A stretch of DNA of 34,951 bases from a virus (Duplodnaviria; Heunggongvirae; Uroviricota; Caudoviricetes), in the IMG/VR virus record IMGVR_UViG_2740892423_000023, positions 1 through 34,951 of that record; one strand, given 5' to 3'. The position numbers were made by a program, and so were the translations under genes. This document shows, one piece after another, positions 505-31,837 of this stretch; positions within the stretch are counted from its first letter, which is position 1; each line of letters opens with the position of its first letter. Below the pieces are notes generated by a model, which was not told where the DNA came from, did no database searches, and saw only the letters and a program-made list of their open reading frames with translations.

Positions 505-521
505 AAAGCCTCTGAACTGAA

Positions 522-545: not shown

Positions 546-551
546 ATTGTT

Positions 552-1076
552 TTACACGTCAGGTTTTTCCGGCCACTGAATTAAATCAAAGGAAGATTTA
601 TCGCTGACCTGACTTAAATCCAGCGCCTTTACCGCTTTGATATATGCCATCCACTGCATAAGACGGGCTTTATCATCGTCGCTGATGGTGCCCAGCTCCA
701 GCTCGGTTTTCCAGTCGGAGGTGATGTCCTTCGCTTCATTCAGCAGGCGCTGACGTTGTTTTTCTGCCAGTTGCGAATAATCAACAGGAACAGGCAGCAC
801 TTCGCCGTCTTTGTAATACCAGCTGGCTTCAATGCCAAAACCTTCCGGCAGTTCATCCACTTCCACAATGGTGAAGCCAGCCGGATAAAGACGGGACACG
901 TCTTCAGCCATCGAATAAATCACGCCGGTTTCAGGGTGAATACACAATTTGTATTTCTTCGTGAATTTATCCAGTGATTCATAAAAATCCTGTCCGTCCT
1001 CACTGCGGAAATACTGAATGTTTTCACCATAAGGCATCTCTTCCGGGTAATAACGCGTGACGTTTCTGAGTTCCAT
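552..1076 (-). CDS. Tail fiber assembly protein (Tfa/Mu U-like)
   Basis: ORF 552-1112; start refined to ATG 1076 (MELRNVTRYYPEEMPYG) preceded by AAGGAG; C-terminal DKARLMQWMAYIKAVKALDLS typical of Tfa chaperones. Confidence 0.8.
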   Translation of the reverse strand: MELRNVTRYYPEEMPYGENIQYFRSEDGQDFYESLDKFTKKYKLCIHPETGVIYSMAEDVSRLYPAGFTIVEVDELPEGFGIEASWYYKDGEVLPVPVDYSQLAEKQRQRLLNEAKDITSDWKTELELGTISDDDKARLMQWMAYIKAVKALDLSQVSDKSSFDLIQWPEKPDV

Positions 1077-1090
1077 TATTTTCTCCTTAA

Positions 1091-1894: not shown

Positions 1895-2466
1895 TATTCC
1901 TCCACCTCATACGTGAAATAACAGTCTGTAAAAGCCGGTTTAAGGTCTTTAAAGGTATTTTCTAAAATGGATTCACCGAAGGCCGTCAGCGGTTCACCGG
2001 TTGCCGATGCCCCCGTTCTGAACCGGTAGAGCGGTGTTTTTGTCCCGATAACGTTGACCTGCCACGCCCAGCGGATTTCCGGTATCAGCAGACGATCGCC
2101 ACAGCGGTTTATCCCCACCCGGAACGGTCGTGGCTCCGTAATGGTGATGGTATAACCCAGACTGGCGGCAAGGCTCTTAAAGTAAGGGATTGACAGCCCG
2201 CCCGTGGCTGCCATTTTCACCAGAATGTTCTGCCTCCGCTCCTGTTGTGTTGCCCCTTCACGGGGGGCAATACCGTACACACGCTCCCAGTCGGACAGCG
2301 TCATCGATGCCTGCAACGGGGTGATTTGTGCCAGAACGCGCGCCGCTGACGCCTTCACGGCCTCCATGACGTCAGCCTCGGCGGTCAGTTCTGCGGAAAT
2401 ATATTTCCCGTTCGGGTCATAACTGACAGGTGGCAGCATGGCGCGAAATAAATCGACCATATTCAT
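1894..2466 (-). CDS. Tail protein, Mu gp48-like (DUF2313-like)
   Basis: ORF 1894-2502; start refined to ATG 2466 (MNMVDLFRAMLPP) with GAGGGG RBS, 2 nt after upstream stop; position after baseplate J. Confidence 0.65.
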   Translation of the reverse strand: MNMVDLFRAMLPPVSYDPNGKYISAELTAEADVMEAVKASAARVLAQITPLQASMTLSDWERVYGIAPREGATQQERRQNILVKMAATGGLSIPYFKSLAASLGYTITITEPRPFRVGINRCGDRLLIPEIRWAWQVNVIGTKTPLYRFRTGASATGEPLTAFGESILENTFKDLKPAFTDCYFTYEVEE

Positions 2467-2470
2467 AAAA

Positions 2471-3550
2471 TCACCCCTCACGTGGAAAAGGCTGAATATC
2501 AATATTTCCGGGGCGCAGCCATTCCCACGTTGACGCGTTAATAATGGCTTTTACGTTGCCTGCTGGCGTAATGATTCGCCGGTCACTGATACCGGAAATT
2601 AATGAAATCTGGGTTTCCAGTTGTGAAATAATTAATTCCTGCCCCGGCTCCAGCCGGTTCATAAAATCCGTGATAACGTCAGTTATCTGCGGTTTTATCT
2701 GTTCAACGGTCAGGCCGCTGGTTTTTACCCGGACAACGAAATCAACGGCTTTTTTCGTCGGGGCCAGCACCATCGTGTCCTTCGCTGTCACCGGGCGGAC
2801 TTCCTCAATATGAGCCAGCACGGCATTAATCAGTTCCTGCGAGGGAAGGTCATTGGCTGACGTAATGGCCACATCAACCGTCCCCAGTCCACGACGCAAT
2901 GGCTCCACATATGCCGAGGTAACACCATCCACTTCCAGCGCCCAGCGTTTGTAATCATATTTGTTACCGCCAGCGGGCGGCCTGCGCAGAATATCCAGAT
3001 AACGCGCCAGCAGGTCGGCGTCGCTTTCCCTGTCCGTTCCGCCGGTCAGGGATTTAATCGTCACCGTGCTGTTGATGCCTTCCGGCGGACTGACGAGCGT
3101 TGCCGTCTGCGTCGCGGATGCATTCGTCTGTGCACCCTTGGTGGTGCTTTTTACCGTCACCTCCGCGCTGCCTTCATCACCGATGGTGCAGTCTGCGGTG
3201 GTGGCCACGCTGACACCTTCACCACGAATTTCCGCACCGGCTGGCAGCGTCTTACCGGGTGTGCCGGTAATCACTGCCGGACCGGATGAGGCTGTTGCTT
3301 TTTTACGAAAAACATTGCGCGTGCGGCAGTGCAGCTCCAGATATTCAGGGTCTGCCGTGTCAGGAAACACCTGACGGAGGATCCACCCCTGATGCATATA
3401 AAGCCCGTCCGCCACGCCGGATACGGCATTTGCACGAATGCGGTAATCGCTGTCAGCGCCGGTATCTATGGTTTCTCCCGGCAGGGCGTTAGCGATATCA
3501 CGTAGCTGGCGTTCTGTGTTTTCAGCAACGCCCGGAACAGGAAACGGCAT
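2471..3550 (-). CDS. Baseplate J-like protein (Mu gp47-like)
   Basis: 359-aa ORF; position and size match Baseplate_J family; overlaps neighbours by start/stop coupling. Confidence 0.75.
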   Translation of the reverse strand: MPFPVPGVAENTERQLRDIANALPGETIDTGADSDYRIRANAVSGVADGLYMHQGWILRQVFPDTADPEYLELHCRTRNVFRKKATASSGPAVITGTPGKTLPAGAEIRGEGVSVATTADCTIGDEGSAEVTVKSTTKGAQTNASATQTATLVSPPEGINSTVTIKSLTGGTDRESDADLLARYLDILRRPPAGGNKYDYKRWALEVDGVTSAYVEPLRRGLGTVDVAITSANDLPSQELINAVLAHIEEVRPVTAKDTMVLAPTKKAVDFVVRVKTSGLTVEQIKPQITDVITDFMNRLEPGQELIISQLETQISLISGISDRRIITPAGNVKAIINASTWEWLRPGNIDIQPFPREG

Positions 3551-3900
3551 TACATAATCCTCACAGGGTGTTCAAACGTCTGCGGTGTGCCCGCGTTATC
3601 CGTGACGGTGATTAACAGCAACAGCCAGCCGCGCTGGCCCACTTTCGTGTCAACGGTAATGGCTGTCGCCCGCCCGTCATCAAGCAGGGGCTGAAGTGCC
3701 TGGCTGGCATACTGCGCCGCCAGCCTGTGGACACGGGAAACGTCTTTTTCCCGCTTCAGCTCGTGCAGGCGTGACCCCAGCGACGCATCCGCCCAGTAAC
3801 TGCCAAGCGGTGTCGCCAGTCGCAGATAAACCGCGTTATGGAGTGTATAAATCCGGCGGCGTTCGTAGTCGCCGGTTGCAGGTGAAATCGTCTGGTCCAT
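3550..3900 (-). CDS. Baseplate protein, phage GP46 family (Mu gp46-like)
   Basis: 116-aa ORF MDQTISPATGDYERRRIYTLHNAVYLR between spike and J genes. Confidence 0.7.
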   Translation of the reverse strand: MDQTISPATGDYERRRIYTLHNAVYLRLATPLGSYWADASLGSRLHELKREKDVSRVHRLAAQYASQALQPLLDDGRATAITVDTKVGQRGWLLLLITVTDNAGTPQTFEHPVRIM

Positions 3901-3953
3901 GCCGCCAGTCTGGCAGCATGGACAGGTCAGAATCAGGTGAGGGTGTTCAGCAC

Positions 3954-4607
3954 TTAATTATGCGGCAGGCCAGATATGCCGTGAGGGGTATCGTGTTTAT
4001 GCGTTCCGATTTTAACGCCATTAATGGTGACGTCAACGGAGGTAATCACACCTCCCACATGGTTGATATTGCCTTCAAAGGTGGCGGCGTATTCCTTGCC
4101 TCCACGGATGGCCATGCCACCGTTGCCGGTGATTTTACCTTCCACCGTCAGCTTATCGCTGGCCGTCAGTAACGGTGTCGTGAATGCGGCGTTCTCCTCT
4201 GCCTCAACCTCATAGCGTTTGCATTTCACCCGGTAAACGTCACATTCGGTTTCAACAATCCGCCCGCGCTTCAGTACGATTTTCGCGCCTTCGTCGGTAT
4301 ACAGGGCCACCTCGCCGGGTTTCAGTTCCGTCAGGCGATATGCGCCGTGCTCTGTGGCCACGACGACGGTATGGGAGGTATTACCATTCAGCGGAACGGC
4401 AATACCCATCGAGCCGGGCGGCGGGGATGTGGTGAGGCCGTAATGCTGAAAATACTCCGCACCGTCCAGCTGTTCGCCTGCCAGCCCGTTCAGCTGAAGT
4501 AGCTGTACTTTGGTCGAACTGTCCACCGTACCGGTCACCACCCTGAATGCCTGGCGAACGGCGGCCAGTGCCTGCTGTATGCGCTGATTAACCTTGTCCC
4601 ACATCAT
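3954..4607 (-). CDS. Baseplate spike/assembly protein V-like (Mu gp45-like)
   Basis: 217-aa ORF; gpV-like pattern with C-terminal THKHDTPHGISGLP; ATGA overlap with upstream gene. Confidence 0.75.
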   Translation of the reverse strand: MMWDKVNQRIQQALAAVRQAFRVVTGTVDSSTKVQLLQLNGLAGEQLDGAEYFQHYGLTTSPPPGSMGIAVPLNGNTSHTVVVATEHGAYRLTELKPGEVALYTDEGAKIVLKRGRIVETECDVYRVKCKRYEVEAEENAAFTTPLLTASDKLTVEGKITGNGGMAIRGGKEYAATFEGNINHVGGVITSVDVTINGVKIGTHKHDTPHGISGLPHN

Positions 4608-5815
4608 TTCTCCCAGACCTTAACAATGGCGACCTCTTTTTTCTTTTTGCCCCTGCGGTGATGGCGTTTCTTCTCGCGCGGGAAGGCATCTGGTATCCAC
4701 ACGCCATCCTCCTTAAAGCGGAGCCGGGTTGTCTGCCCGCTCCGGCCTCCGCTGAACTCACGCCCCATCAGGAAAAAGATGGCATCAATGCCGTGGGGTT
4801 CGCTGACAATTCGCACACGCTGGCCGGGCTGCCACAGGACACCGTCCGTCGTGCGATGACCTGCAACCAGTGCGACGATATTCAGCCCCGACAGGCGGGC
4901 ATCACTCATCATTTTTTTGGCGCGCCAGTTCACCTGCTCCATGTTACTGGTGTCGCCCTGGGTGATTATCTGCGGGCGGTAATAATCCACGGCGGGGTCG
5001 GTGGCCACGGCTTTCATGTTATGAATGCCTGTCTGACCATTGTCCGTATTACCGCTGTCCTGCCCGGATAATGTGCGCACGCTGCCGTCCTTGTTCCAGA
5101 TATCCAGCGGCACCACGGCCAGTTGTTTCTTGCTGTCTGCGCGGCGGGCGTGGCTCTGGGCCAGCACCGTCAGCTCGGAGAAACAGCCGTTAATGGACCG
5201 GGTATCGTCCAGCTCCATCACGTTGTTCCCGGTGCCGTCCAGCTTCATAATCAGCGTGTCCACCGGCGTGGTGGTGTAGTCAGGGCCACCCACAACCAGC
5301 GTCCCGTCAGGCTCAAACCACGGCCATAAGCCGCGACCGGCGGCAGCTTTAGCCAGTGCATCCCACGCACGCATCCCCGGCTCTATAACGACCTTGTCAT
5401 TACGTGACACACCGGACGCCTGAATACGGATGCGCTGTATCCCCAGCGGTCTGACTATCCTGTCGATGACCTCGTCCAGTGTCAGCTGGTTGGCGCTGAA
5501 CACCGGTGCGGCACAGTCCACCAGGATGGCGGCATCATCACGCCCGGACAGGGTCAGCGTGCAGCTCTGACGGGATACACTGCGGCGCACGCTGTCCACG
5601 CGACCACTGAGGACCGTCTCGTCTCCCACCTGCAAACGGACCGGCGCACCCCGGACGATATCCGCCGGGAACACCTTTTCAGGCAGTCCCAGCTGAAGCT
5701 GCCACCCGTCGGCGGCTTTCAGGAAATCGCTGTCAATACGATAACTGCTCCAGTCAGAATGCGACCTTCCGGCAATGACCAGGCTGATTTTGTCGTCGTT
5801 ATTTTGCATAGGCAT
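4604..5815 (-). CDS. Baseplate hub / late control D-like tail protein (Mu gp44-like)
   Basis: 403-aa ORF between DNA-circulation protein and spike gene; size and position typical. Confidence 0.75.
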   Translation of the reverse strand: MPMQNNDDKISLVIAGRSHSDWSSYRIDSDFLKAADGWQLQLGLPEKVFPADIVRGAPVRLQVGDETVLSGRVDSVRRSVSRQSCTLTLSGRDDAAILVDCAAPVFSANQLTLDEVIDRIVRPLGIQRIRIQASGVSRNDKVVIEPGMRAWDALAKAAAGRGLWPWFEPDGTLVVGGPDYTTTPVDTLIMKLDGTGNNVMELDDTRSINGCFSELTVLAQSHARRADSKKQLAVVPLDIWNKDGSVRTLSGQDSGNTDNGQTGIHNMKAVATDPAVDYYRPQIITQGDTSNMEQVNWRAKKMMSDARLSGLNIVALVAGHRTTDGVLWQPGQRVRIVSEPHGIDAIFFLMGREFSGGRSGQTTRLRFKEDGVWIPDAFPREKKRHHRRGKKKKEVAIVKVWEK

Positions 5816-7148
5816 TAATCACCATCCCGGCGGTTATGTTGTTCGGGTCACGCAGCTGCGGGTTCAGACGTTGCAGCTCTGCCGCACGGCTGTAATCACC
5901 GTACCACTGCCACGCCAGCAACAGCAGACAGCTGTCCGCCTGCACCTGTTTCTGCGTCAGCGGTGGGCGGCGTGACAGAACCAGCAGGCCGACATCCTGC
6001 ACGGATGCCGCCACGTTCTTCATGCTCTGAATGATTTCCGGGTACATCAGCCCCAGTGGTGATGCGGTTTCGGTTATCCATTCGCGTTCGCCTTCATAGC
6101 GTTCACGGAACAGCGTGATGGCTGCCTGTAAGCGGGTGCGCACATCCCCGACCAGTCGCCCGATATCCGCCGGTATAAGCTGCTCTGACTGGGCCTCATC
6201 TGACAGTATCGCCGTCGCCACGCTGGCCAGCTCTGAGGCCGCCAGAACCGCATAAGCCGCTTTCACGTCCTGCACGTCTTCCACGGACGCATCCGGCGGA
6301 AGTGCCACAGACGGCGTTTTATCACCGCTGACCAGCGCGACCGGCAGCGCGACCAGCTCATCCATATCTGCCATCACCTCATTCCAGCAGGTCATCACGG
6401 TCGCAGAACTGGCGACGCTGTCTTCTCCGGTCAGCCCGGTCGTGGTGGCGGAATCAGAACGCTCCAGCACCGGCACCGCGTGCCCGACATCTGACGTGTG
6501 GATTTCCAGCACCTCTGCCAGCCCACCGATGAACTTTCCGGGTTCGCTGGCCAGCGACATCATATTGTCGATGGATGAGAGAAAATCGCTTTTGAACGTC
6601 AGCAGGGTATTTACCAGTGTGGCGCGCACTGTCTGGATTTTTTTAATCACGCTGTTAATGGTCTTTAAAGGGGCTGTAACAGCGTCAAATAATTCGCTTA
6701 ACTGTGCCAGTAACTTATCCAGTTCTTCAAATAACTTCTGTGCAAACAACTCCGGTAACGGGGTGCTGAACAACGCGCTGCCGGTGCGGTTCTCCAGAAA
6801 GCTCATGTCGATGGTGCAGCTGTCCGGGCTTTCTGCGTCATGGCGAATGCTGTAGCCGGTCACAATCACCGACGGAACGGAGCCGTAAACCGGGTGAATC
6901 AGCTCACCATCGCCGCCTTTATCCAGGGCGGCGATCAGCTTTTCAAGTTTATATTCGTAATACTCCCCCCACAGGAACGCCGTCATGCGGAACGGTCGCG
7001 CCTTGCGTCCGAGGTCGTGCAAATCTGCCCCGTCAACAAACGGGTATTCATAGACCGCATGGTCGCGGCTGATTTGTTCATCCGTGTTCAGTACATCAAA
7101 CTGCACGCCACGAAAGGAGGCGTTTTGCAGGTTTTCAGCCCAGCCCAT
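5799..7148 (-). CDS. DNA circulation protein (Mu N-like), C-terminal LysM-like region
   Basis: 449-aa ORF MGWAENLQNASFRGVQFDV; start shares one nt with tape measure stop (TGATG). Confidence 0.75.
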   Translation of the reverse strand: MGWAENLQNASFRGVQFDVLNTDEQISRDHAVYEYPFVDGADLHDLGRKARPFRMTAFLWGEYYEYKLEKLIAALDKGGDGELIHPVYGSVPSVIVTGYSIRHDAESPDSCTIDMSFLENRTGSALFSTPLPELFAQKLFEELDKLLAQLSELFDAVTAPLKTINSVIKKIQTVRATLVNTLLTFKSDFLSSIDNMMSLASEPGKFIGGLAEVLEIHTSDVGHAVPVLERSDSATTTGLTGEDSVASSATVMTCWNEVMADMDELVALPVALVSGDKTPSVALPPDASVEDVQDVKAAYAVLAASELASVATAILSDEAQSEQLIPADIGRLVGDVRTRLQAAITLFRERYEGEREWITETASPLGLMYPEIIQSMKNVAASVQDVGLLVLSRRPPLTQKQVQADSCLLLLAWQWYGDYSRAAELQRLNPQLRDPNNITAGMVINAYAK

Positions 7149-9382
7149 CAGTAAGTGCCTCCCGTGCCTCTGTTACCGTCCTGAAGGTTGTATTTATTCA
7201 CCGCCTCTGCGATAACCTGCCCGTCGAGCACCACCTGAGTGGTGACGTTAACCGGGGGCGCTGGCGGCTGTCCGCCATTCTGAACGCCGGGCTGACCACC
7301 ACGTTTACCGGATGCATTAATGGTATCAGCCGCGGTCATCCCGGCTTGCTGTCGGACTTGTTCTGGTGTCGGCAGAGAATCACCGGCGATAACCCCGGTT
7401 TTTTTCAGTTCGTCAAGATACTGCTGGATCCATTTCTCGTTTTCTGTTGAGTAACCTTCGCCAAACTGCCACCACGGCTGATATTTTTCACGGGCAGCAT
7501 CAATCAGCCACTGAGGATATTTAGCCCGTATATTTTTCCAGCGCTCCTCGCTTCCTTCGACGGCGGCGTCTTCTTCCGGGCTGGTTGCGGTAGCCAGTGC
7601 CGTAACGGTGCCACCGAAAGAAAGCAGGCCACCGGCAATGCCGGGAAGTTTTAACCCTTTGCCTTTCTTAATTGTGGTTTCAAGCACATCACCAACAACG
7701 TCGCCAATCTTGCCACCGGATTTTCCCCCGGTCAGGATTTTGACCCCGGCCCATGTCAGGGCCGCTGCGGTCATCGCTTCAATGGCGGTCGTGGCTGCCA
7801 CCACTGCCGTGGTCAGTCCCGGAAACTTTTCACCCGCCCAGCTTATGGCATCAGCCACAGCACCGGACGCATCAGCCAGCTTTTTCACGCTGTCCATTTG
7901 TGAAAATTCAAGCGTGTTTTTAGCCTGTTCGGTTTTAAAATCATTCGTGCCTGACGTGAATTCGAAATCCACATCACCAGTTCGTTGACCTTCAGGAAGT
8001 GACCGTTGTTTTTCAATTTCAGCTTCAACCTTTTTGCGAAACTCAGGATTCTGGCGGTAGGCCAGAGCGCCCAGTAGCGCCTGACGGTCCTGAAGGATCT
8101 CACCAACCCCAAACCCTTCAAGAATAGTGGCCATAGAGTCCAGAATTTCAGCCTGTTCTTTTTTATCCTTTGATGCAGCCAGTTTTTTTTGAAGTTCCTG
8201 ATAGGCCGGATTGTTTTTTACAACAGCATCAAGAACCCGGTTAAACGCCTCAATCGGATCAATGCCTCGCTCACGGGCCATGGTCATTGTTCCTGGTAAA
8301 TCAATATACTTACCGTTGGCCATTTTTATATTTGCAGCAGCATCTGCGGCCTGCTTACTGTTAATTTTATCCAGAAAATTTAGCGTGTTATTGGCTGCCT
8401 CTTTACCATTTCCGGCTGTGATACCCGCAGCTTCATTTGCTGTCAGTATCTTCTGAAAACCATCCAGACCCCACATCCCTGTTTTTTGCGCAATCCCGAG
8501 TTGCCCGGGAAGGGCTTCTGCCATGTCCTTCAGTTCAACCCGACCTTCTTTACCGGCTGCAATCGCCATATTCAGCGCAACGGGAATATCTTTATCACTG
8601 ACGTTAAAAGTATCTCTGAGGGATACTGCAATTGTCGCCAGCTCTTTTGGTAATGCACCTGATGCTGTGGCATATTTCATAATCTGCGGAAGCCATTTAT
8701 CCGCAGTGTCATAATCAACCCCTGCTGCCAACAATTCATTCATTGTGTCAGCAGCATCCTCTTTTGAGCCTCCGCCGTACATCACGGCATTTTTAATACT
8801 GCTTTTCAGTTTTTCTTTCCCGGCCTGTCGACCTGCCAGACCACCATCACTGAAGGCAGTATTGGCCATTTCACTCAATCGACGATCAAAGCTCATCTGC
8901 TTTTTGACCGGCTGTGTCATAATGGCAGTACCTGCTGCGATGCCACCACCAATCGTCAGGACGTTGCCGCCAATATTGGCCGCCTTTGCCAGCGTGCCGA
9001 CACCACGCATTTCCCGCTTCAGTTCCCGGATTTGCTCTTTCGTGGCACGCCATGCCCGCGCCTGTTCGCGGGCAGACATGACGCCACTACGGGCAAGGCG
9101 GTTATAACTGGCTTCAGTAAGGGCGATTTCCCGGCGGATTTCATGCTCCGAACGGATGCCAAGCGTTTCCCGGGCACGGGCTGCACGCTGTAATTCGGTG
9201 ACAACCCTTTTTGTGCTGTTGATGCTCTCATCATCGGTGCGTTTCTGCTCCTGACCTGCCTTTTTGGTTGCTTTTTCCACTCCTTCAGTGGCTTTTACAA
9301 CCTTCTTTTTTCCCTTTTCCAGAACCTGCGAGGCTTCGTCCTTCGCAGTCAGGGTCATGCCAACTTTGAAATTACCGGCCAT
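7148..9382 (-). CDS. Tail tape measure protein
   Basis: 744-aa ORF, Ala/Gly/Lys-rich with coiled-coil character, immediately downstream of tail chaperone. Confidence 0.85.
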   Translation of the reverse strand: MAGNFKVGMTLTAKDEASQVLEKGKKKVVKATEGVEKATKKAGQEQKRTDDESINSTKRVVTELQRAARARETLGIRSEHEIRREIALTEASYNRLARSGVMSAREQARAWRATKEQIRELKREMRGVGTLAKAANIGGNVLTIGGGIAAGTAIMTQPVKKQMSFDRRLSEMANTAFSDGGLAGRQAGKEKLKSSIKNAVMYGGGSKEDAADTMNELLAAGVDYDTADKWLPQIMKYATASGALPKELATIAVSLRDTFNVSDKDIPVALNMAIAAGKEGRVELKDMAEALPGQLGIAQKTGMWGLDGFQKILTANEAAGITAGNGKEAANNTLNFLDKINSKQAADAAANIKMANGKYIDLPGTMTMARERGIDPIEAFNRVLDAVVKNNPAYQELQKKLAASKDKKEQAEILDSMATILEGFGVGEILQDRQALLGALAYRQNPEFRKKVEAEIEKQRSLPEGQRTGDVDFEFTSGTNDFKTEQAKNTLEFSQMDSVKKLADASGAVADAISWAGEKFPGLTTAVVAATTAIEAMTAAALTWAGVKILTGGKSGGKIGDVVGDVLETTIKKGKGLKLPGIAGGLLSFGGTVTALATATSPEEDAAVEGSEERWKNIRAKYPQWLIDAAREKYQPWWQFGEGYSTENEKWIQQYLDELKKTGVIAGDSLPTPEQVRQQAGMTAADTINASGKRGGQPGVQNGGQPPAPPVNVTTQVVLDGQVIAEAVNKYNLQDGNRGTGGTY

Positions 9383-9530
9383 TTTTCTGCTTACCTTTTC
9401 TGCGTTTCTTTCTGAGGGATTTAAATGACTGGCGGGTGGTCTGCGAGGTGCCCTTCCTTCCTGAGCCGCCGCCGTTCAGCCTGTCAACGGCGGCAAGCCA
9501 GCCGTCCAGCTCGGGACGGCTCATGGTCAT
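9372..9530 (-). CDS. Small ORF in -1 frame between chaperone and tape measure (candidate frameshift extension or independent small gene)
   Basis: Hand translation MTMSRPELDGWLAAVDRLNGGGSGRKG...; the -1 frame relative to gp41 is open from 9629 to 9372; weak AAGAG before ATG 9530. Confidence 0.35.
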   Translation of the reverse strand: MTMSRPELDGWLAAVDRLNGGGSGRKGTSQTTRQSFKSLRKKRRKGKQKNGR

Positions 9531-9544
9531 GATTTGCTCTTCGG

Positions 9545-24011: not shown

Positions 24012-24434
24012 TTATTGTTTATGTGCTGCTCTGGCTCGTTTTCTGGCGTCTTTTGTCAGCGCCACCATCACCCCGAAAAGCTGTTCATCCGTCAGCCATT
24101 CGATCACATGTTGCTTATACATGTGAGATGCCAGTCCTTCTGCATACGCCCAGGAACGACCGGCATCAGCCAGCAACGCTTCAATTTTGGATAATACCGA
24201 TTTTCTGCTCATTGCAACACGGGGGCGGCGACCTTTACCGACGGGCGCTTTGCGCGGGAATCCCTGTTCGTGCATATATTCCCGGATGATGCGCAGTTCA
24301 TCGAGGTTGCAGCGTGTGGTGCTGGTTTTACCGGTCAGGCGGGCCAGCGTCTGGCGATAAAGGGCATCATCCCACCCCAGATACGCCTGACCGGCTTTAA
24401 TGGCTCCGATCATCTTTTTCAGCATGTTTGTTAT
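24012..24434 (-). CDS. gemA: GemA-like regulatory protein (DUF1018-like)
   Basis: ORF 24012-24551; start refined to ATG 24434 (MLKKMIGAIKAGQAYLGWDDALYRQTLARLTGK), characteristic N-terminal pattern; position before Mor. Confidence 0.65.
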   Translation of the reverse strand: MTNMLKKMIGAIKAGQAYLGWDDALYRQTLARLTGKTSTTRCNLDELRIIREYMHEQGFPRKAPVGKGRRPRVAMSRKSVLSKIEALLADAGRSWAYAEGLASHMYKQHVIEWLTDEQLFGVMVALTKDARKRARAAHKQ

Positions 24435-24675: not shown

Positions 24676-24698
24676 AATGACCAAAACACTACTTTTGG

Positions 24699-24724
24699 CA
24701 GACCAAAACATATGTTTTGGTCTG
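24699..24724 (-). promoter_or_regulatory. 26-bp perfect palindrome upstream of the 92-aa gene
   Basis: CAGACCAAAACATATGTTTTGGTCTG; a second related inverted repeat CCAAAAC-N5-TTTTGG at 24681-24698 abuts the start codon. Confidence 0.55.
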
Positions 24725-24742
24725 TTATTGGTTATTATTTAA

Positions 24743-24925
24743 TTACTTTGCGTTAGTGTGATTCTTCCAGCGGTTTTGCGCCGCGCTGGGCTTTTTGCAA
24801 CAGCTGTGCCCCATCACCCCGCAACACCCCGTCAACCTCACTCGTCTGTTACTAATCCTCAACCATCGCCAGATCCCAACACCGTTTCTGCGAGCTAACA
24901 GAATTTTTGCCTTACGATTTTTCAT
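24743..24925 (-). CDS. Small basic Cys-rich ORF (60 aa), hypothetical
   Basis: AGGAGAG RBS 7 nt before ATG; ATGA overlap with preceding small ORF; composition atypical. Confidence 0.25.
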   Translation of the reverse strand: MKNRKAKILLARRNGVGIWRWLRISNRRVRLTGCCGVMGHSCCKKPSAAQNRWKNHTNAK

Positions 24926-25095
24926 CGTTTTGCTCTCCTGCGTTTCTTTGCTGCTCGTCTCGCCGCCGCAATGCCTGTACGGCGTTTCGGTGCCGGGATG
25001 ATGCTGTCAGCCATCAGGACATGCGGCTTTGCAATTAGCGCAGAAGCCCAAAATCGAGTCGGATACGGTAACAAGCCGATACATGCCACACGCAT
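24922..25095 (-). CDS. Small basic ORF (about 57 aa), hypothetical
   Basis: Hand translation MRVACIGLLPYPTRFW...RRAAKKRRRAKR; GGAGGTGA SD formed by last codons of upstream gene; TAATG start overlap. Confidence 0.25.
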   Translation of the reverse strand: MRVACIGLLPYPTRFWASALIAKPHVLMADSIIPAPKRRTGIAAARRAAKKRRRAKR

Positions 25096-25484
25096 TACTC
25101 ACCTCCCTTACCCTGAAGCATGGCGGCGCAGCAGGCGTTCCATGAAATTTCCTGAAGGGAACGACGAATCTGTGTGCTGCATATACTCCTCCCTGACTCC
25201 TGGCTGTTAAACCATGTTTCAAATTCCGGCACCACCGTCGCTGGCGGGGCAGCGTAGAGTGGAATGCCTCTCCCTCCATAAGAAAATTCGTTGCGAGCGT
25301 TATACTCACGACCATCTGCGTCATCACGCATCCATGCCACCGGCTCTGCTTCCAGCGATGCCAGCGCGATACGAAACACATTGGCAAGCAGGCTGTTTGA
25401 AGATTGGTTATCGTGCGCCGGGTCGCTCAGGAAACCAGTGATGAATGATTTAATCTCCGCTTTTTCTCTGGTTATAGTGGTCAT
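25095..25484 (-). CDS. Hypothetical protein (129 aa)
   Basis: ORF 25095-25565; start refined to ATG 25484 (MTTITREKAEIKS) with AGGAG RBS, just after upstream stop. Confidence 0.5.
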   Translation of the reverse strand: MTTITREKAEIKSFITGFLSDPAHDNQSSNSLLANVFRIALASLEAEPVAWMRDDADGREYNARNEFSYGGRGIPLYAAPPATVVPEFETWFNSQESGRSICSTQIRRSLQEISWNACCAAMLQGKGGE

Positions 25485-25485
25485 A

Positions 25486-26076
25486 TCACTCTCCTTTGAT
25501 GCGAATGCCTGCGGCACGTAGCACATTAACTTCCACGATGCGCACAGTTGGTTTGTACATCTCAATTGCTGTCAGCCAGTCAGCGCCAGTCATGCGCTTT
25601 TCTGCATCGCCATTAGTCCACTTAACCGGTACACCAATAGCCTTCATCGCGATTTCTATTTCCCCGGCAATGGCGCTTTTTCCGCAACCAGTAAAACCAG
25701 ATACAACGACAAGAACTTCGCCTTTGGCTGGTTTTATTTCCCGTGCTTCCAGTTCTGCTATGCGCTTCTCTGCGGCTTCCAGCTTCTTGTAAAGAGCATC
25801 CCAACTTGTCGAGTTATCCATAACCAGCTTTGTAACCCGCTCTTCGCGTGATTTGTAATACTCCAGTTCATCCAGCAGTGCCAGCACGGTAGCCGGATTG
25901 GCTGCTGCTATGAATCGCTTATTGGCGCGATTATCTGGTCCTGAGCATGATGCTATGTAGTAATTTGCGTTCAGTCCGGCATCAGCAATTACCCCATAGT
26001 AATCATCAGAACACCATTCGCCTGGTGTTGCATTTTCTGCCGCCATTCGCAGTGCCTGATAGTTAACTTCACTCAC
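25486..26076 (-). CDS. Ead/Ea22-like protein
   Basis: 196-aa ORF, GTG start with AGGAGG RBS; N-terminal ...ALRMAAENATPGEW... typical of Ea22-like proteins of lambdoid phages. Confidence 0.6.
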   Translation of the reverse strand: MSEVNYQALRMAAENATPGEWCSDDYYGVIADAGLNANYYIASCSGPDNRANKRFIAAANPATVLALLDELEYYKSREERVTKLVMDNSTSWDALYKKLEAAEKRIAELEAREIKPAKGEVLVVVSGFTGCGKSAIAGEIEIAMKAIGVPVKWTNGDAEKRMTGADWLTAIEMYKPTVRIVEVNVLRAAGIRIKGE

Positions 26077-26329
26077 TGGTTGCCTCCTTTTTCCATGTTT
26101 TCAGACTTTCACCACAGAACGGGCAAAATGAGACTCGAATAGGTGATTTAGAAAACTCACCAGAACGCAACATCACCAAATCAGGTCCACGGGTTAAACT
26201 CTCATTCCAGATTTTGTATAGCAGTAAGCCTTTTCTTACTGAGCATTCAGCATCGTGCTCAAGAGACTTTGCCAATGCAGCACACGGCTCTATTCGATTG
26301 CCATTAATTCGACACTTTAATTCACTCAC
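26069..26329 (-). CDS. Small Cys-containing protein (87 aa), possible zinc-binding
   Basis: ORF 26069-26392; GTG 26329 with GGGAGGAG RBS, GTGA overlap with upstream ORF; paired Cys (C-x13-C ... CPFC). Confidence 0.4.
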   Translation of the reverse strand: MSELKCRINGNRIEPCAALAKSLEHDAECSVRKGLLLYKIWNESLTRGPDLVMLRSGEFSKSPIRVSFCPFCGESLKTWKKEATSE

Positions 26330-26490
26330 TTCAACTCCTCCCGACGACGTTCCTGAAGTTCCAGCATTGCGGCCCGGAAATCCTGCCACCATTCCTCATC
26401 GGCAACGGGGCTGTTTCGCTCCAGCACCTTGTCCGCATCGGCAATCAGTCTGGTCAGGCTCTTATCGCTTATTCTGGTTTGCTGGTTCAC
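26326..26490 (-). CDS. Small hypothetical protein (54 aa)
   Basis: Hand translation from GTG 26490 with AGGAGG RBS: VNQQTRISDKSLTRLIADADKVLERNSPVADEEWWQDFRAAMLELQERRREELK. Confidence 0.4.
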   Translation of the reverse strand: MNQQTRISDKSLTRLIADADKVLERNSPVADEEWWQDFRAAMLELQERRREELK

Positions 26491-26777
26491 TGCGCCGCCT
26501 CCTGTTCATTTTTTTCACTCCGGTATACCAAAATCACGACATCACCTACGGGGATAACGCGGGTTGGTTCTCCCGGCTCTATGCTGTCGATATCGAAGGC
26601 CTCAAAAAACGCATTCATTGCCTTCTGCTGCTGCGTCTGTTTACGGTGCTTATTCCATGTTTTCAGGAATACAAGGGACAGCCACATCCCGGCGCGGAGC
26701 ATGATGTAACACCAACCGAGAAGAGCGATGCCTGCATTCATGGCTATATCTATCGTTATCGTTTTATCAATGACCAT
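26487..26777 (-). CDS. Small membrane protein (96 aa, hydrophobic N-terminal half)
   Basis: AGGAGG RBS; hydrophobic ITIDIAMNAGIALLGWCYIMLRAGMWLSLVFL. Confidence 0.5.
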   Translation of the reverse strand: MVIDKTITIDIAMNAGIALLGWCYIMLRAGMWLSLVFLKTWNKHRKQTQQQKAMNAFFEAFDIDSIEPGEPTRVIPVGDVVILVYRSEKNEQEAAQ

Positions 26778-26997
26778 TGCCAGCCTCCTGTTTTGCCACT
26801 TTAAACGCCCGTAACATCGGGACCGTCTTACCGTAGATGACGGTTCTCATTAAAAGACCGCCACCGCTCTGATGGTGCACTTCAGGGGCCGCAAACAGCG
26901 CCGCATCCACAACCCGGCAATAGCGACGGAACTCCCAGAACCAGCAGGTGACAATGATTTTTGCAGTAACCCCATAGTCATAAAATTCAATATTCAT
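26767..26997 (-). CDS. Hypothetical protein (76 aa)
   Basis: ATGA overlap with upstream ORF; AAGGAGG upstream. Confidence 0.45.
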   Translation of the reverse strand: MNIEFYDYGVTAKIIVTCWFWEFRRYCRVVDAALFAAPEVHHQSGGGLLMRTVIYGKTVPMLRAFKVAKQEAGNGH

Positions 26998-27221
26998 TTG
27001 CAGTTAAACCTCCTTTTGTGACGTTCTACAGCGGCTTTCATGGCGTTGTGTACGGTTCTTTTAATAATCCGGTGTCCCGCACTGTCATAGAACCGCCACC
27101 GGGAAGCCCCCGGATATTTAGGGAACTCAACCGCCGCGCTACCGTCATTCATCCTGTATTCGTGGCGTTCTCCGGGAGGCTGGTATATTGCTTCGGTAAC
27201 ACTGAGAAGTTTAAAAGCCAT
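26994..27221 (-). CDS. Hypothetical protein (75 aa)
   Basis: GGAGGGGG RBS 5 nt before ATG 27221, immediately after DUF2786-like gene stop. Confidence 0.45.
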   Translation of the reverse strand: MAFKLLSVTEAIYQPPGERHEYRMNDGSAAVEFPKYPGASRWRFYDSAGHRIIKRTVHNAMKAAVERHKRRFNCK

Positions 27222-27223
27222 CG

Positions 27224-27934
27224 TTACCCCCTCCCCAGTGCCAGCGGTCTGTTGCTCTGACCATTAACCCCCTGATGCAGCCTGGCGTTTTTCCCGGCGA
27301 TAAAACCGGCAGTAGCGGCAAACTCTGCACCCCGACACGCTTTAGCTGTGCGCATATCCCCGTCGCGCAGTCCTTTAGTGCTGTGCAGGTTCTTTCTGTA
27401 AAGCTCAAGGCGACTTTTTTCTTCCGGGGAGACGTCATACACCGCAATGACATCACGGGCACCAAAGACCCAGCCTTCGCAGAACTGGTCGCCACGGGCT
27501 ACCCGCGTGGACGGGCCGCAACGTTTGCAGTGTTTATCCTGATATTTCTTGCGCTCTGCCATCATCTGACGGGAAAGCACATCAAACGCGTAAGCCGCGA
27601 TTTCCGGGCGGCTGTCAGAGCCATAAAAACGCACGTGACGTTTGAGTGAACCAGAAGCCCGGTACTCACCGGATATGTAACACTCGACACCGAAGGCTTT
27701 ACAGACCAGGTCACACAGGATGTGCATATAACGCGGCGGCGTACTGGCATCACTCGGCGCACCCGCGCTGGCAGCTTCCTGAATGTCGAACAATTCAGCG
27801 TCGTTTTCGCTGATGCCATGCTGGCGCATATAAACCTGGGCTTTTGCAATAGCGTTAGCGGCTTCTTCCGGGCTTGATGTCCCTCTGGCAAGGCGTAACA
27901 GTTTTTTGATTTTGGCAATGTATTTATCTTTCAT
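27224..27934 (-). CDS. DUF2786-like protein (236 aa)
   Basis: N-terminus MKDKYIAKIKKLLRLARGTSSPEEAANAIAKAQVYMRQHGI matches the pattern I recall for DUF2786. Confidence 0.55.
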   Translation of the reverse strand: MKDKYIAKIKKLLRLARGTSSPEEAANAIAKAQVYMRQHGISENDAELFDIQEAASAGAPSDASTPPRYMHILCDLVCKAFGVECYISGEYRASGSLKRHVRFYGSDSRPEIAAYAFDVLSRQMMAERKKYQDKHCKRCGPSTRVARGDQFCEGWVFGARDVIAVYDVSPEEKSRLELYRKNLHSTKGLRDGDMRTAKACRGAEFAATAGFIAGKNARLHQGVNGQSNRPLALGRG

Positions 27935-27947
27935 GGTCGTCTGAACC

Positions 27948-28130
27948 TCAGCATCCTGAATTCTGAATTACGCGACTTCCGGCACGGCCTTCAGGAGCGT
28001 GGGGAGCTCGTTCTGGCTGCGGCGCTGAATGAACATCTGCTGTTGATTGAGAACTGGTCGCAAGACGATTAAAACAAACGATTGTCAGATTAATTTCGCG
28101 GGCGAATTTTTTTTGCTTAGCGATATTCAT
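27948..28130 (-). CDS. Small ORF (60 aa), doubtful
   Basis: GAGGAAG RBS 9 nt before ATG 28130, directly after repeat copy A; product low-complexity. Confidence 0.25.
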   Translation of the reverse strand: MNIAKQKKFAREINLTIVCFNRLATSSQSTADVHSAPQPERAPHAPEGRAGSRVIQNSGC

Positions 28131-28146
28131 AAATAAACTTCCTCAG

Positions 28147-28205
28147 ATTCAGGCGTAAGCCAGCCCCGGCGGGTTTACGCCATATACAAATAAAATTAAA
28201 AACAG
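28147..28205 (-). repeat. Repeat copy A: 35-bp GC-rich palindromic core plus A/T-rich tail
   Basis: attcaggcgtaagccagccccggcgggtttacgcc at 28147-28181, identical to 28772-28806; outer arms GGCGTAA/TTACGCC. Confidence 0.8.
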
Positions 28206-28210
28206 ACTTA

Positions 28211-28762
28211 TTAACTACGACATTCAGCTTTCCGGTAATGACGGTCAACAGACTTTACGAACGCCTTCACATCACGGGAAATCGAATCCAGCGGATAATA
28301 TTCATTCAGCAGTTCCATTCCACTGAATCGAATCTGAAAAAAATCAGGCTTATCTTTATATGACTCCATCAGGTCAATAAACCGCAACTGACGCGGGAGG
28401 GATTCCTGCACGCCTGAAATAGTGAGCAAATCACCTTCAAGAATGTCCCGGAGGTCTTCCATACCCTCCCTACATGACTGCATGGATATTCTTGTCAGTA
28501 TGTTGCGTGTCGCGAGGTACAGTGCCACCGTGTCATTTGCCATCATGGCGAACAAATCCCCCTGAATATAAGCCCCCTTACTGGCCATAGCATTCCCGGC
28601 AATCTGGGCATTAAGTACCACATCCATAAAACTACCGGGTCCTCCCAGACGTCCCAGCAATGATGACGCCCATAACGTTACATTGGTTAACTTCTCAGAT
28701 GAACGGGTAGCAAAACCTTCAGGAGTAACAATAAAATCCCAGACTTTATCTTTCATATACAA
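28211..28762 (-). CDS. Hypothetical protein (183 aa), repeat-flanked cargo gene
   Basis: AAGGGGA RBS; no family recognised; lower GC than flanks; bracketed by repeat copies A and B. Confidence 0.6.
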   Translation of the reverse strand: MYMKDKVWDFIVTPEGFATRSSEKLTNVTLWASSLLGRLGGPGSFMDVVLNAQIAGNAMASKGAYIQGDLFAMMANDTVALYLATRNILTRISMQSCREGMEDLRDILEGDLLTISGVQESLPRQLRFIDLMESYKDKPDFFQIRFSGMELLNEYYPLDSISRDVKAFVKSVDRHYRKAECRS

Positions 28763-28837: not shown

Positions 28838-29029
28838 TTAATGCGGTGCTTTCAGTGTTTCGACTTTTACGAAATAAGGCTCGACATTAATTTCAACCAC
28901 ACAACCACATTTAAAATCTCTGGCCGGTGAAACGGTTTTCACCACACGACCACCACGCAACGCCGGATGTGCAGTGTGCATGAAGCGAGTCCCTACCGGA
29001 TACTGCTTATTAAAGTTCTTCGCATTCAT
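28838..29029 (-). CDS. Hypothetical protein (63 aa)
   Basis: GGAGG RBS 7 nt before ATG 29029. Confidence 0.45.
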   Translation of the reverse strand: MNAKNFNKQYPVGTRFMHTAHPALRGGRVVKTVSPARDFKCGCVVEINVEPYFVKVETLKAPH

Positions 29030-29243
29030 GGCGTGGCCTCCAGCCCTTCAGGTGAGCGTTAGCGCAGAACTCCGCACGATGTTCAGCCCAGATACGACGC
29101 AGGGTACTACATGGGCTTTGTGCTGCCTTACGCCACAGCTTTTCAGCCCCGGCATAATCGCCGCGTTGTTCTGCTCTGGATGCACCCAGCGAATACGCTG
29201 CGCAACTATTTCCGGCTCTGTACTCTTTGATATCCTGATGCAT
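29010..29243 (-). CDS. Hypothetical protein (about 77 aa)
   Basis: ORF 29010-29354; start refined to ATG 29243 (MHQDIKEYRAGN), 2 nt after upstream stop. Confidence 0.45.
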   Translation of the reverse strand: MHQDIKEYRAGNSCAAYSLGASRAEQRGDYAGAEKLWRKAAQSPCSTLRRIWAEHRAEFCANAHLKGWRPRHECEEL

Positions 29244-29244
29244 G

Positions 29245-29889
29245 TTAAACCCCTGCAATATCAAGCGGGATTGCGCGGTATTCATCAGAATCACCGACGC
29301 GCTCATACACGCGGATATAGCTTTTGCTGCCAACCACCTGGACGGCTTCACCAATCAGCGTCATGGCGTTATCCCAGCGCTCCTCCGTAATATCGAGACG
29401 ACGCAGAGCCAGAACGCGCCCGGTGTTAATATTGCCTTCCTTGTCCGTGCTGAATGCCTCACTGATGATGGCTTTAATTTCAGGGCGCGCTCCTTCCGTC
29501 CAGTCAGCCAGGCAATCATCAATCAGCGATTTCGCGGTCTGGATGCGCTCATCAAACGCGATACGGTCCTGCATAGCGCGCTGAATCTTGTAGCGTCCGT
29601 CAAAGCTGTAAAGCGTGATATTGCCTTTTTTACCGCCTTTCACAGCGCCGTATTTCTCCGCCGACAGGTCAATAAATGCCTGAATATCACCAAACGCGCG
29701 CAGTTTCAGTTCACGCAGCGAGGCGGAGGCAGCAATCACCATCTCCACAAGCTCACCGACCAGCTGCTCGCGGTCGCGGTCAATATCTTTGATAAGGCTT
29801 TCAGGTGTCATTACGCCACGGGCATCCACCCAGTAACCTTCAGGCGCTTGAGTTTTCGTGTATTGCTTAACTTTATTTTCAGTCGTCAT
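29245..29889 (-). CDS. Conserved Mu-like early protein (214 aa; possibly DUF3164-like)
   Basis: MTTENKVKQYTKTQAPEGYWVDARGVMTPESL...; family name from memory only. Confidence 0.5.
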   Translation of the reverse strand: MTTENKVKQYTKTQAPEGYWVDARGVMTPESLIKDIDRDREQLVGELVEMVIAASASLRELKLRAFGDIQAFIDLSAEKYGAVKGGKKGNITLYSFDGRYKIQRAMQDRIAFDERIQTAKSLIDDCLADWTEGARPEIKAIISEAFSTDKEGNINTGRVLALRRLDITEERWDNAMTLIGEAVQVVGSKSYIRVYERVGDSDEYRAIPLDIAGV

Positions 29890-30597: not shown

Positions 30598-30947
30598 TAT
30601 CTGAGTGCAAACGCAAGTCGTGGCTGATAACGGGGAAGACGGGCACACATACGCGCAAGACGATAAGCCCGACGAAACCCCTGTAAAGTCTGCTCAAAAG
30701 GAATAATCATTAATCGCGCACAGCATTCATCAACATCCCAGTCGTCGCTGGTATTTCCGGTTCCATTGATTTCCCGTTCACGGGAATACAAATCAATGCG
30801 CAGTTCACCCGGCACGAAGCAATCAACAAACGGAATAATTTCACCAGGGGTTCCATTAGAATAAATACAACCATTACGACCAATACTCTGTAGTGCCCTT
30901 ATTTCATTTCTGAGAGCCATTTTTTCCATGCGCAAAACTCCAGTCAC
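30597..30947 (-). CDS. Hypothetical early protein (116 aa; start GTG 30947 or ATG 30929)
   Basis: First gene after MuB (kil-region position); GTGA overlap with MuB stop. Confidence 0.45.
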   Translation of the reverse strand: MTGVLRMEKMALRNEIRALQSIGRNGCIYSNGTPGEIIPFVDCFVPGELRIDLYSREREINGTGNTSDDWDVDECCARLMIIPFEQTLQGFRRAYRLARMCARLPRYQPRLAFALR

Positions 30948-31837
30948 TTAATTAACATTTCGGAGAATTTCTCAATAGCTTTTACGCTCACTGGCACTTT
31001 GGTGACATCACTCATCCGGTACACGCCACGCACCAGTTTGAACAGGCGACGGGCGTTACCACGCGAATATGTATAAAGCGCCTCGCCGATTTCTGGCGTT
31101 TCCGCTTCCGGCATCAATTCTGTGGCTATTGGCGTAAAATCCTCTGGCGACAACGTATTCCCCATATCAAGCGCCACACCCACACGACTGTATAACTGAG
31201 CGAACTCCCCGCGATTACCCTTAAGATTAGTCACAAGGCGCGGCATACCCGCCAGAACAATCCCGATACCCGCCTTGTCATGCAGACGGCGCAGAACCTC
31301 CAGTGCACGGTAGGGGAGTAGCTCGGCTTCATCCACCATCAGCAGACGACCGGAATCACGCAGTTCGCGCACACAGACATCAATCAGTTCGTGAATACTG
31401 CCGCGAACCTTTACCCCCAGCTGGCGACACAGCTCCCCGAGTAGCGCCCTGGCTGTATAGCCGGTGTCAGCCTCAATCAGTATCGCATCCCGGTTTCTGG
31501 CGGCGTATTCACTCAGAATCATTGTTTTTCCAAGACCAGCCTCGCCATGCAGCACGCAGATTTCACAATACGCATGAGCATAAGAGAGCATCTCCAGCCC
31601 TTTATCTGCCATTTCCGTGGCGACAAATTTCGCTTTAACACGACGATTACTTTGCTTCTCCAGCTCACGACTGACAAAGGAAGATATACGCTCTTCAACG
31701 TCAGTAACGTCACCTACATATTTACCCTGTAAGTACTGGTTGATAACGGCGCTACTACGACCAATTGCACGACCAACGTGGGTCTGCGTATAGCCGCAAC
31801 GGGCCATTACGTCATTTAATTGCGTAATTAAACTCAT
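30944..31837 (-). CDS. Transposition ATPase, MuB-like (AAA+)
   Basis: 297-aa ORF; Walker A GEAGLGKT, Walker B LLMVDEAE; directly downstream of transposase. Confidence 0.9.
   Translation of the reverse strand: MSLITQLNDVMARCGYTQTHVGRAIGRSSAVINQYLQGKYVGDVTDVEERISSFVSRELEKQSNRRVKAKFVATEMADKGLEMLSYAHAYCEICVLHGEAGLGKTMILSEYAARNRDAILIEADTGYTARALLGELCRQLGVKVRGSIHELIDVCVRELRDSGRLLMVDEAELLPYRALEVLRRLHDKAGIGIVLAGMPRLVTNLKGNRGEFAQLYSRVGVALDMGNTLSPEDFTPIATELMPEAETPEIGEALYTYSRGNARRLFKLVRGVYRMSDVTKVPVSVKAIEKFSEMLIK

Follow-up and report, generated by a model that had tools for sequence, protein, structure and literature searches.

A DUF2786 gene and an exchangeable cassette of small genes in the predicted early operon of an Escherichia coli Mu-like prophage

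The virus sequence IMGVR_UViG_2740892423_000023 (34,951 nucleotides, nt; here called the window, meaning the whole stretch of DNA that was analysed) contains, between its transposition genes and the gene for GemA, an unbroken run of small genes, and this run is, together with the genes that follow it, the subject of the present analysis. The interval would represent the central part of the long early operon in an Escherichia coli Mu-like transposable prophage, functionally equivalent to the non-essential "semi-essential" region of Mu. We consider it probable that it forms the accessory part of this operon, in which one backbone gene, probably serving in the establishment of the element, precedes a cassette of host-modulating genes that can be exchanged. 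All position numbers refer to the whole window and all genes of the early region lie on the minus strand; the genes concerned, with product lengths in amino acids (aa), are listed here in the direction of reading.

27224-27934, minus strand: DUF2786/DUF7168 gene, 236 aa
26994-27221, minus strand: 75-aa gene, product basic with an isoelectric point (pI) of 10.2, first gene of the variable slot
26767-26997, minus strand: 76-aa gene, in ATGA overlap with the 75-aa gene
26487-26777, minus strand: DUF4752 gene, 96 aa, product hydrophobic
26326-26490, minus strand: 54-aa gene, GTG start inside a GTGA overlap, product acidic (pI 5.0)
26069-26329, minus strand: 86-aa Cys gene, GTG start
25486-26076, minus strand: Ea22-like gene, 196 aa, GTG start, PF13935
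25095-25484, minus strand: 129-aa open reading frame (ORF), an EaA/DUF551-type N-terminal fragment

The backbone gene is the DUF2786/DUF7168 gene. Its product, which an initial annotation of this DNA had called DUF2786-like, indeed carries PF10979 (47.5 bits against a cut-off of 23.9, residues 4-43) followed in N-to-C order by PF23771 (101.6 against 25.5, residues 60-187), both above their gathering thresholds. A family profile built from 50 full-length relatives and searched against 1.84 billion cluster representatives retrieved 14,101 representatives at E<=1e-3, and the best 150 profile matches are mainly stand-alone proteins of 220-245 aa. When the gene neighbourhood was surveyed in 80 loci from other genera, one or more Mu-type markers were found on the same strand in 54 of them. 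In a typical locus DUF3164 or Gam stops 0.3-0.9 kb upstream of where DUF2786 starts, and GemA follows 0.7-5 kb downstream of that point. In Pseudomonas phage JBD25 the order is A-B-...-PF11363-PF10979-x-x-GemA-x-Mor. The gene is likewise found in other kinds of element. In 14 enterobacterial loci the order is ParA, a DnaB-type helicase, a 566-aa protein, DUF2786 and DUF2857, with AcaB and topoisomerase III further on, and the DUF2786/DUF7168 protein of these island modules, encoded directly before the DUF2857 gene, is about 43% identical to that of the window. DUF2857 is the BisC family of the master activator of ICEclc (PMC7423338), and the wider ParA...TopB cluster has been described for the gonococcal island and for PAGI-type islands (PMC3334931). 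Furthermore, the DUF2786 gene is present in 361 plasmid records, 258 of which are typed conjugative, and in the conjugative plasmid pACICU2 it is one of a series of small genes that all point the same way and precede parAB. This recurrent position across transposable phages, islands and plasmids argues that the DUF2786 gene is a conserved backbone gene of early or establishment operons in several kinds of mobile element and not cargo, so that the view of the whole cluster as accessory does not hold for its largest gene.

Everything downstream of DUF2786 is, as far as the comparison of loci goes, a variable slot with contents swapped by recombination. In 82 loci the genes directly after DUF2786 form 48 clusters that are unrelated to one another, and in most loci this next gene starts -3 to +11 nt from the DUF2786 stop. 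Eight E. coli Mu-like prophages in RefSeq have the order Mu transposase, AAA ATPase (MuB), small genes, DUF3164, an ANR-family regulator, a 63-aa gene, 0-2 variable genes, DUF2786, a variable run, a 92-aa gene, GemA and Mor; MuA, MuB, DUF3164, ANR, DUF2786, GemA and Mor are constant in the eight, and it is the genes after DUF4752 that vary. Among four E. coli prophages compared in detail the 75-, 76- and 54-aa genes occur in all and DUF4752 in most, and among E. coli prophages the genes for the 86-aa protein, the Ea22-like protein and the EaA fragment are present in some and absent from others, or have divergent replacements. Synteny across Mu-like prophages, which had been suggested as a check, does accordingly separate a DUF2786 core from a variable slot.

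The closest relatives of the window furthermore point to a mosaic. With a 7-kb query, the prophages of strains STEC308, STEC307 and STEC306 cover 89% at 97.7% identity, those of STEC346 and STEC316 are 99.2% identical over part of the query and those of E2348/69 and others 92-95%, and the cluster proteins are 99-100% identical to the STEC308 and STEC346 versions. Synonymous divergence (dS), and its ratio to nonsynonymous divergence (dN/dS), were calculated pairwise against four related E. coli prophages. For DUF2786, dS is 0.05-0.16 against all four, whereas the cassette from the 76-aa gene on is identical to that of STEC308 and STEC346 and yet has a dS of 0.65-1.3 against E2348/69, and it is this contrast between DUF2786 and cassette that suggests the mosaic origin. 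A separate observation concerns MuB (30944-31837), which is only about 81% identical to that of E. coli prophages whose cassette genes (25095-26997) match at 99-100%; a low MuB identity beside a high cassette identity would make the window a recombinant between different Mu-like lineages.

As to where the cargo comes from, the slot draws on the accessory gene pool of the lambdoid "ea/exo-xis" region. Similarity to isolated phages at the DNA level is found in the lower half of the cluster only, where the Ea22 and 86-aa genes match lambdoid phages (phiV10, Stx phages, Rac-SA53) and the P1-like phages JL22, D6 and SJ46 at 80-97%, and where the DUF4752 gene has 72-75% nucleotide identity to Stx phages, in which an Ea22-like gene follows it directly, close to ant and to the end of the genome.

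The arrangement of the genes is that of an operon. The six genes of 26069-27934 are read head to tail and fill the interval without a break, and the Ea22-like gene and then the 129-aa ORF follow downstream. From DUF2786 to the 129-aa ORF the spacing from gene to gene is +2, -4 (ATGA), -11, -4 (GTGA), -4 (GTGA), -8 and +1 nt, the DUF2786/75-aa junction having the sequence TAAcgATG, and AGGAG or GGAGG is present at -16 to -4 of all seven starts after DUF2786. The same five-letter Shine-Dalgarno (SD) cores are found at 2.7% of all ATG and GTG on the minus strand, a background from which we calculate a chance of about 1e-11 for seven SD-bearing starts in succession. Across the cluster, stop and start codons overlap or lie close to each other and the SD site falls inside the upstream gene, which is the pattern of a coupled operon, and we predict from this layout that the cluster genes are translationally coupled in one operon. 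Promoter and terminator scans found no excess of sigma-70-like promoters or intrinsic terminators inside the cluster, and no Rfam match was found there either, which fits a single long transcript. The description of the region in the initial annotation, as a small translationally coupled cluster between the transposition genes and GemA, is thus borne out by spacing and SD sites alike; the ATGA and GTGA overlaps that it mentioned are likewise present, whereas a TAATG overlap, also mentioned, occurs at no gene junction. It may be added that the 10-nt sequence AGTGAGTGAA is found on the minus strand at both 26320-26329 and 26067-26076, where it forms the 54-aa/86-aa junction and the 86-aa/Ea22 junction; its presence at both makes the 86-aa and Ea22-like proteins begin alike (M/V-S-E), and it may be a short boundary sequence that helps the exchange of modules.

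That the six ORFs of 26069-27934 are genuine coding genes under purifying selection follows from their PHROG matches, from dN/dS values below 0.5 throughout and from the serial SD sites. Every ORF of the cluster has a PHROG family match, with E from 1e-33 to 1e-69, and dN/dS is 0.03-0.11 for DUF2786, 0.10-0.13 for the 75-aa gene, 0.15-0.22 for the 76-aa gene, 0.26 for DUF4752, 0.27-0.36 for the 54-aa gene and 0.44 for the 86-aa gene. The matches are however to families of unknown function only, and neither Pfam, PHROGs, NCBIfam, PADLOC and PDB sequences nor the literature searched assigns a function to any of the genes, as had been stated at the outset; a functional study of DUF2786, DUF4752, DUF3164, PF10979 or DUF7168 was likewise not found in that literature.

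Considering the slot genes one by one, the 75-aa protein belongs to phrog_9400 (E=2e-40) and its gene was found in each of the four E. coli prophages, in STEC308 as a truncated copy, and in 5 of the 80 other loci; among the loci examined it is seen only in E. coli, Erwinia, Yersinia pekkanenii and Candidatus Symbiopectobacterium. The NCBI Prokaryotic Genome Annotation Pipeline (PGAP) skips this ORF in most RefSeq E. coli genomes and leaves a gap of about 226 nt after DUF2786. Its dN/dS, its strong SD site and its match to phrog_9400 despite the lacking annotation suggest that it is probably a systematically missed gene. The 76-aa protein (phrog_1001, E=1e-35) is 76-100% identical across the four E. 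coli Mu-like prophages and has relatives of 31-49% identity in 100 phage records, mostly Stx and other Escherichia phages plus Klebsiella phages. The 96-aa protein matches PF15944 (DUF4752) with 123 bits against a cut-off of 27 and over 84 of 84 profile positions, and falls in phrog_667; the maximum of its Kyte-Doolittle hydrophobicity in a 19-residue window is 1.64, at residues 9-27, so that it probably has one N-terminal membrane segment, in agreement with the small hydrophobic membrane protein noted initially. The 54-aa protein (phrog_14672, E=2e-33) is 85-98% identical in the four E. coli prophages and is found in only 3 isolated phages, all of Yersinia. It had been thought to be a missed gene, but it is annotated in RefSeq (WP_165835416.1) and the usually unannotated ORF is the 75-aa one.

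The 86-aa protein (phrog_4030, E=4e-38) is 86% identical to rac21 of phage Rac-SA53 and 78% to gp100 of the P1-like phage JL22. Its family is small, with only 54 clusters in 5.8e9 proteins, and the matches with a named source all come from E. coli, Salmonella or Citrobacter. It had been described as an 87-aa protein with a Cys pair; a Cys protein it is, but of 86 aa and with four conserved Cys (C6, C16, C69 and C72) rather than a single pair, and the four probably form a zinc site. An AlphaFold2 (AF2) model of this protein reaches a predicted local distance difference test (pLDDT) score of only 54 and is unusable for assigning a fold.

The gene at 25486-26076 had been named Ea22-like, and this is upheld by a PF13935 match of 76.9 bits against a cut-off of 27 (residues 2-109, E=2.9e-21). 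Residues 1-77 are 90% identical to 'Eae' of Rac-SA53, the C-terminal half of which is different. The C-terminal domain of the window protein (25486-25779, residues ~100-196) bears a Walker-A-like GFTGCGKS within only about 80 residues, and it is 95-99% identical in the best 120 of 724 matching E. coli Ea22-like proteins, which are 126-170 aa long and have N-terminal parts of varying length, a set too uniform in this domain to support a model of it. This domain gave only chance-level matches to P-loop kinases, and a PDB sequence search (E<=1) with the Ea22-like protein returned three chance-level matches (aminopeptidase, fructokinase, FtsY) and not the lambda Ea22 chain; homology to the solved C-terminal domain of lambda Ea22 was thus not detected in PDB sequences. 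Ea22 is a three-part tetramer with a C-terminal domain that differs between phages (PMC10834534), and the Ea22 proteins of lambda and Stx phages favour lysogeny (PMC7093339). The architecture of the window protein agrees with a modular build in which the C-terminal end can be swapped.

Downstream of this gene the cassette seems to fade out. The 129-aa ORF aligns only to residues 1-127 of the 308 of a POCJ13 DUF551 protein and to residues 1-88 of the 328 of JL22 EaA, it is flagged by PGAP as a partial pseudogene, and it is probably a remnant. A 57-aa ORF at 24922-25095 is 90% identical over 42 aa to a small E2348/69 gene, and in the remaining ~200 nt of 24712-25484 there is no convincing ORF; the stretch 24712-25484 looks like the decayed end of a lambdoid cassette. 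Next to it a repeat search found the following feature.

24679-24722: double palindrome, CAGACCAAAAC-ATATG-TTTTGGTCTG, then CCAAAAG-N6-TTTTGG

It adjoins the 92-aa gene, which starts with an ATG at 24675 and is followed by GemA, and it is kept in four E. coli prophages, including that of strain 54214 with unrelated upstream sequence. By its position it delimits the variable cassette on the downstream side; it could serve to bind a protein, form an RNA hairpin or be a boundary at which recombination occurs.

The backbone genes that flank the interval are those for DUF3164 and GemA.

29245-29889, minus strand: DUF3164 gene, PF11363 E=2.8e-80, the upstream backbone neighbour
24012-24425, minus strand: GemA gene, PF06252 E=2.6e-18, the downstream backbone neighbour

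A Gam-like protein had not been recognised in this DNA, and we likewise found no PF07352 match in the early region and nothing in a tblastn search of the window with Mu Gam. DUF3164 and Gam hold the same position upstream of DUF2786, and in the 73 DUF2786 loci for which sufficient sequence was available on that side, DUF3164 occurs without Gam in 36, Gam without DUF3164 in 12, both in none and neither in 25 (Fisher p=1.7e-4). Two explanations for the missing Gam were tried and rejected: that DUF3164 is a divergent Gam, for which profile-profile comparison (hhalign) gave a probability of 0.15%, and that DUF2786 takes the place of Gam, the two co-occurring in 13 loci. The same position, the absence of any locus with both and the lack of profile homology point to DUF3164 as a positional alternative to Gam, and it may be a non-orthologous replacement.

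Some further features lie between DUF3164 and DUF2786. By RefSeq annotation of homologous prophages, a small gene of the ANR family (AraC negative regulator) follows DUF3164 directly, at ~29010-29243. ANR proteins damp AraC-type virulence regulators, and the prophage copy could affect host gene expression. A 183-aa ORF at 28211-28762 (phrog_7741, no Pfam match) is found by tblastn in only two of the four E. coli prophages, which suggests that another variable slot exists on the upstream side of DUF2786, and the 276-nt gap at 27935-28210 holds a conserved 60-aa ORF with a dN/dS of 0.3-0.5, for which PGAP makes no call.

What the backbone protein does has to be approached from its composition and its predicted fold. 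It is basic (pI 9.4), its family profile has conserved Arg residues, and its AF2 model has a pLDDT of 88.4. Foldseek matched this model to 25 viral DUF2786-type models (BFVD) at E<=1e-3, all of them uncharacterised, and the fold is also present in Sinorhizobium phage phiM12, Delftia phage PhiW-14 and mycobacteriophage Hawkeye, which are unrelated, non-transposing phages. Matches to KH-domain folds are sub-significant, a PDB sequence search gave nothing meaningful and no solved structural homologue was found. The basic pI and the conserved Arg residues suggest that the DUF2786 protein may bind nucleic acid or a partner or host factor.

In the reading that we prefer, the operon would be read leftward from the early promoter, with ribosomes handed over from gene to gene across the overlapping stop and start codons, and it would consist of two layers. 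The first would be the DUF2786/DUF7168 backbone gene, which in the transposable phages of numerous Proteobacteria, from Enterobacteria to Pseudomonas, has DUF3164 or Gam ahead of it and GemA and Mor behind it, and the product of which may aid establishment of the element after entry or induction by binding nucleic acid or a host factor. The second would be the exchangeable slot, made up of the 75-, 76-, 96-, 54- and 86-aa genes, the Ea22-like gene and the EaA fragment. These genes would be dispensable and host-modulating, their likeliest role being to bias the choice between lysis and lysogeny or to alter host physiology, as lambda Ea22 does, and for some of them counter-defence is possible. 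Certain points weigh against this reading. The roles of all cluster genes are read from sequence and context, and their expression is a prediction. The case for nucleic-acid binding by DUF2786 is made up of the basic pI, the conserved Arg residues and the sub-significant KH folds. The C-terminal domain of the Ea22-like protein is unlike that of lambda, so that a pro-lysogenic role may not transfer. The 75-aa, 76-aa and DUF4752 genes, furthermore, are fairly constant in E. coli prophages, which makes the border between backbone and cargo dependent on lineage.

It is conceivable, though in our judgement rather unlikely, that the slot is an anti-defence island, in which one or more small genes, or the Ea22-like protein by way of its swappable C-terminal domain, would block host immunity early after induction or infection. 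The notion is one of analogy. Oad2 of phage HK446 inhibits the P2 OLD nuclease, has a relative in P22 EaE and is sometimes fused to Ead/Ea22 (2026 preprint), and the lambdoid recombination/ea-region gene pool, to which the lower half of the cluster belongs, has been called a likely anti-immunity reservoir (2026 preprint). The Ead-type N-terminal module of the window is, moreover, the one that it shares with Rac-SA53 'Eae', the other C-terminal half of which has an Oad2-like motif, the homologous genes of JL22 adjoin a DNA methyltransferase and a polynucleotide kinase/phosphatase, and the slot is hypervariable. However, the likeness between Rac-SA53 'Eae' and Oad2 amounts to one motif of 21 residues, and hypervariability is equally to be expected of other accessory genes. 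In blastp and tblastn searches with Oad2 (HK446 gp27) against all window proteins and the six-frame window nothing better than E=1.9 was obtained. A PADLOC scan gave only two marginal matches (E ~0.003, 15-16 bits, the level of chance), NCBIfam matches of the cluster were of chance level only, and none of the PHROGs matched by the cluster carries an anti-defence label; no homologue of a characterised anti-defence protein was found. The early regions of transposable phages had also been called known hotspots for anti-defence genes, a claim for which we found no backing, nor any report linking Mu-like early regions to anti-defence, in the literature searched.

We are similarly doubtful about the notion that DUF2786, with or without the 75-aa protein, helps in replication or transposition, either by recruiting host replication proteins or by guarding DNA ends instead of Gam. 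The conserved position of DUF2786 in the A-B-...-GemA operon speaks for it, as do its vicinity to ParA, a DnaB-type helicase and topoisomerase III in the island modules, the basic nature of both proteins and the lack of Gam in the window. A Gam substitute is however in poor agreement with the 13 loci in which DUF2786 and Gam stand together, Mu itself transposes without a DUF2786 homologue, the fold occurs in the non-transposing phages named above, and the 75-aa gene is restricted to few lineages. In a bolder reading, DUF2786 would be a general establishment factor of transposable phages, integrative and conjugative elements (ICEs) and conjugative plasmids, the slot after it a dedicated landing pad for fast-evolving counter-defence genes, the Ead/Ea22 N-terminus a scaffold presenting interchangeable inhibitor domains and the Walker-A domain one such part aimed at a host system, but this is speculation to which we would give little credence. 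A function in protecting the host from within the lysogen, with DUF4752 and its neighbours excluding superinfecting phages or altering the envelope, is more improbable still. DUF4752 has its probable membrane segment and is widespread beside Ea22 in temperate phages, but the genes lie within a repressed early operon, where no separate promoter for them was detected, and the PADLOC models (E<=0.01) are unmatched save for the two chance-level matches. That a part of the ORFs is spurious and the pattern a product of chance, which their shortness (54-96 aa), the frequent omission of the 75-aa ORF by PGAP and the fragmentary 129-aa ORF might suggest, is scarcely credible in the face of PHROG matches at E<=1e-33 each, dN/dS below 0.5 in all and seven serial SD sites against a background of 2.7%. 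A want of conservation would have pointed that way, but all six genes are under purifying selection; the idea is effectively refuted for the six genes in 26069-27934 and stands only for the fragment at 25095-25484.

The cluster is already catalogued, its genes being listed in the RefSeq entries of E. coli Mu-like prophages under the names of hypothetical or DUF proteins, and what is known is left unchanged by the present analysis. It rather provides a map for experiments, in which one widespread backbone gene is split from a delimited cassette with defined boundaries, and it leaves the mutual exclusivity of DUF3164 and Gam as a lead. Mu-like, lambda-like and P1-like phages furthermore draw on a common pool of small early genes, and if it were true that one of the small proteins blocks a defence system or steers lysogeny, hundreds of prophage homologues would be annotated at once.

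Among known systems, Oad2 and P22 EaE belong to the same lambdoid accessory pool, and in other phages an Ead/Ea22 N-terminal module can carry an EaE/Oad2-type C-terminal part, whereas the window has no Oad2 homologue and its Ea22-like protein has a different, Walker-A-bearing C-terminal domain. The ParA-ParB(BisD)-DUF2857(BisC)-...-TopB cluster of the ICEclc, PAGI and gonococcal-island type likewise holds a DUF2786/DUF7168 gene in the 14 enterobacterial loci, but it comes from a different kind of element, and the small genes seen in the window are all absent from it. The lambdoid exo-xis/ea region (lambda ea22, P22 ea, rac19-rac22 of Rac-SA53, the DUF4752-Ea22 pair of Stx phages) is a set of early, non-essential small genes with Ea22-like, DUF4752 and rac21-like members at 72-95% nucleotide identity to the window; there, however, the genes are part of the PL operon and not of a Mu-type early operon, and the C-terminal domain of the window Ea22 is not that of lambda. 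The semi-essential region of Mu (kil, gp6-gp9, gam, gp11-gp15) is, like the present cluster, a one-way run of small, packed and largely uncharacterised early genes between the transposition gene B and gemA/mor, but its gene content is different, as had been supposed: no cluster protein has a tblastn match in Mu 1-11000, where only MuA, GemA and Mor match, and weakly, and Mu has Gam where the window has DUF3164. In Pseudomonas phages of the B3/JBD25 type and other Mu-like prophages the genes after DUF2786 are unrelated to those of the window and the slot is filled differently, but the backbone order DUF3164-DUF2786-GemA-Mor is the same, and the DUF2786 protein of the B3/JBD25 type is 35% identical to that of the window over 99% of its length.

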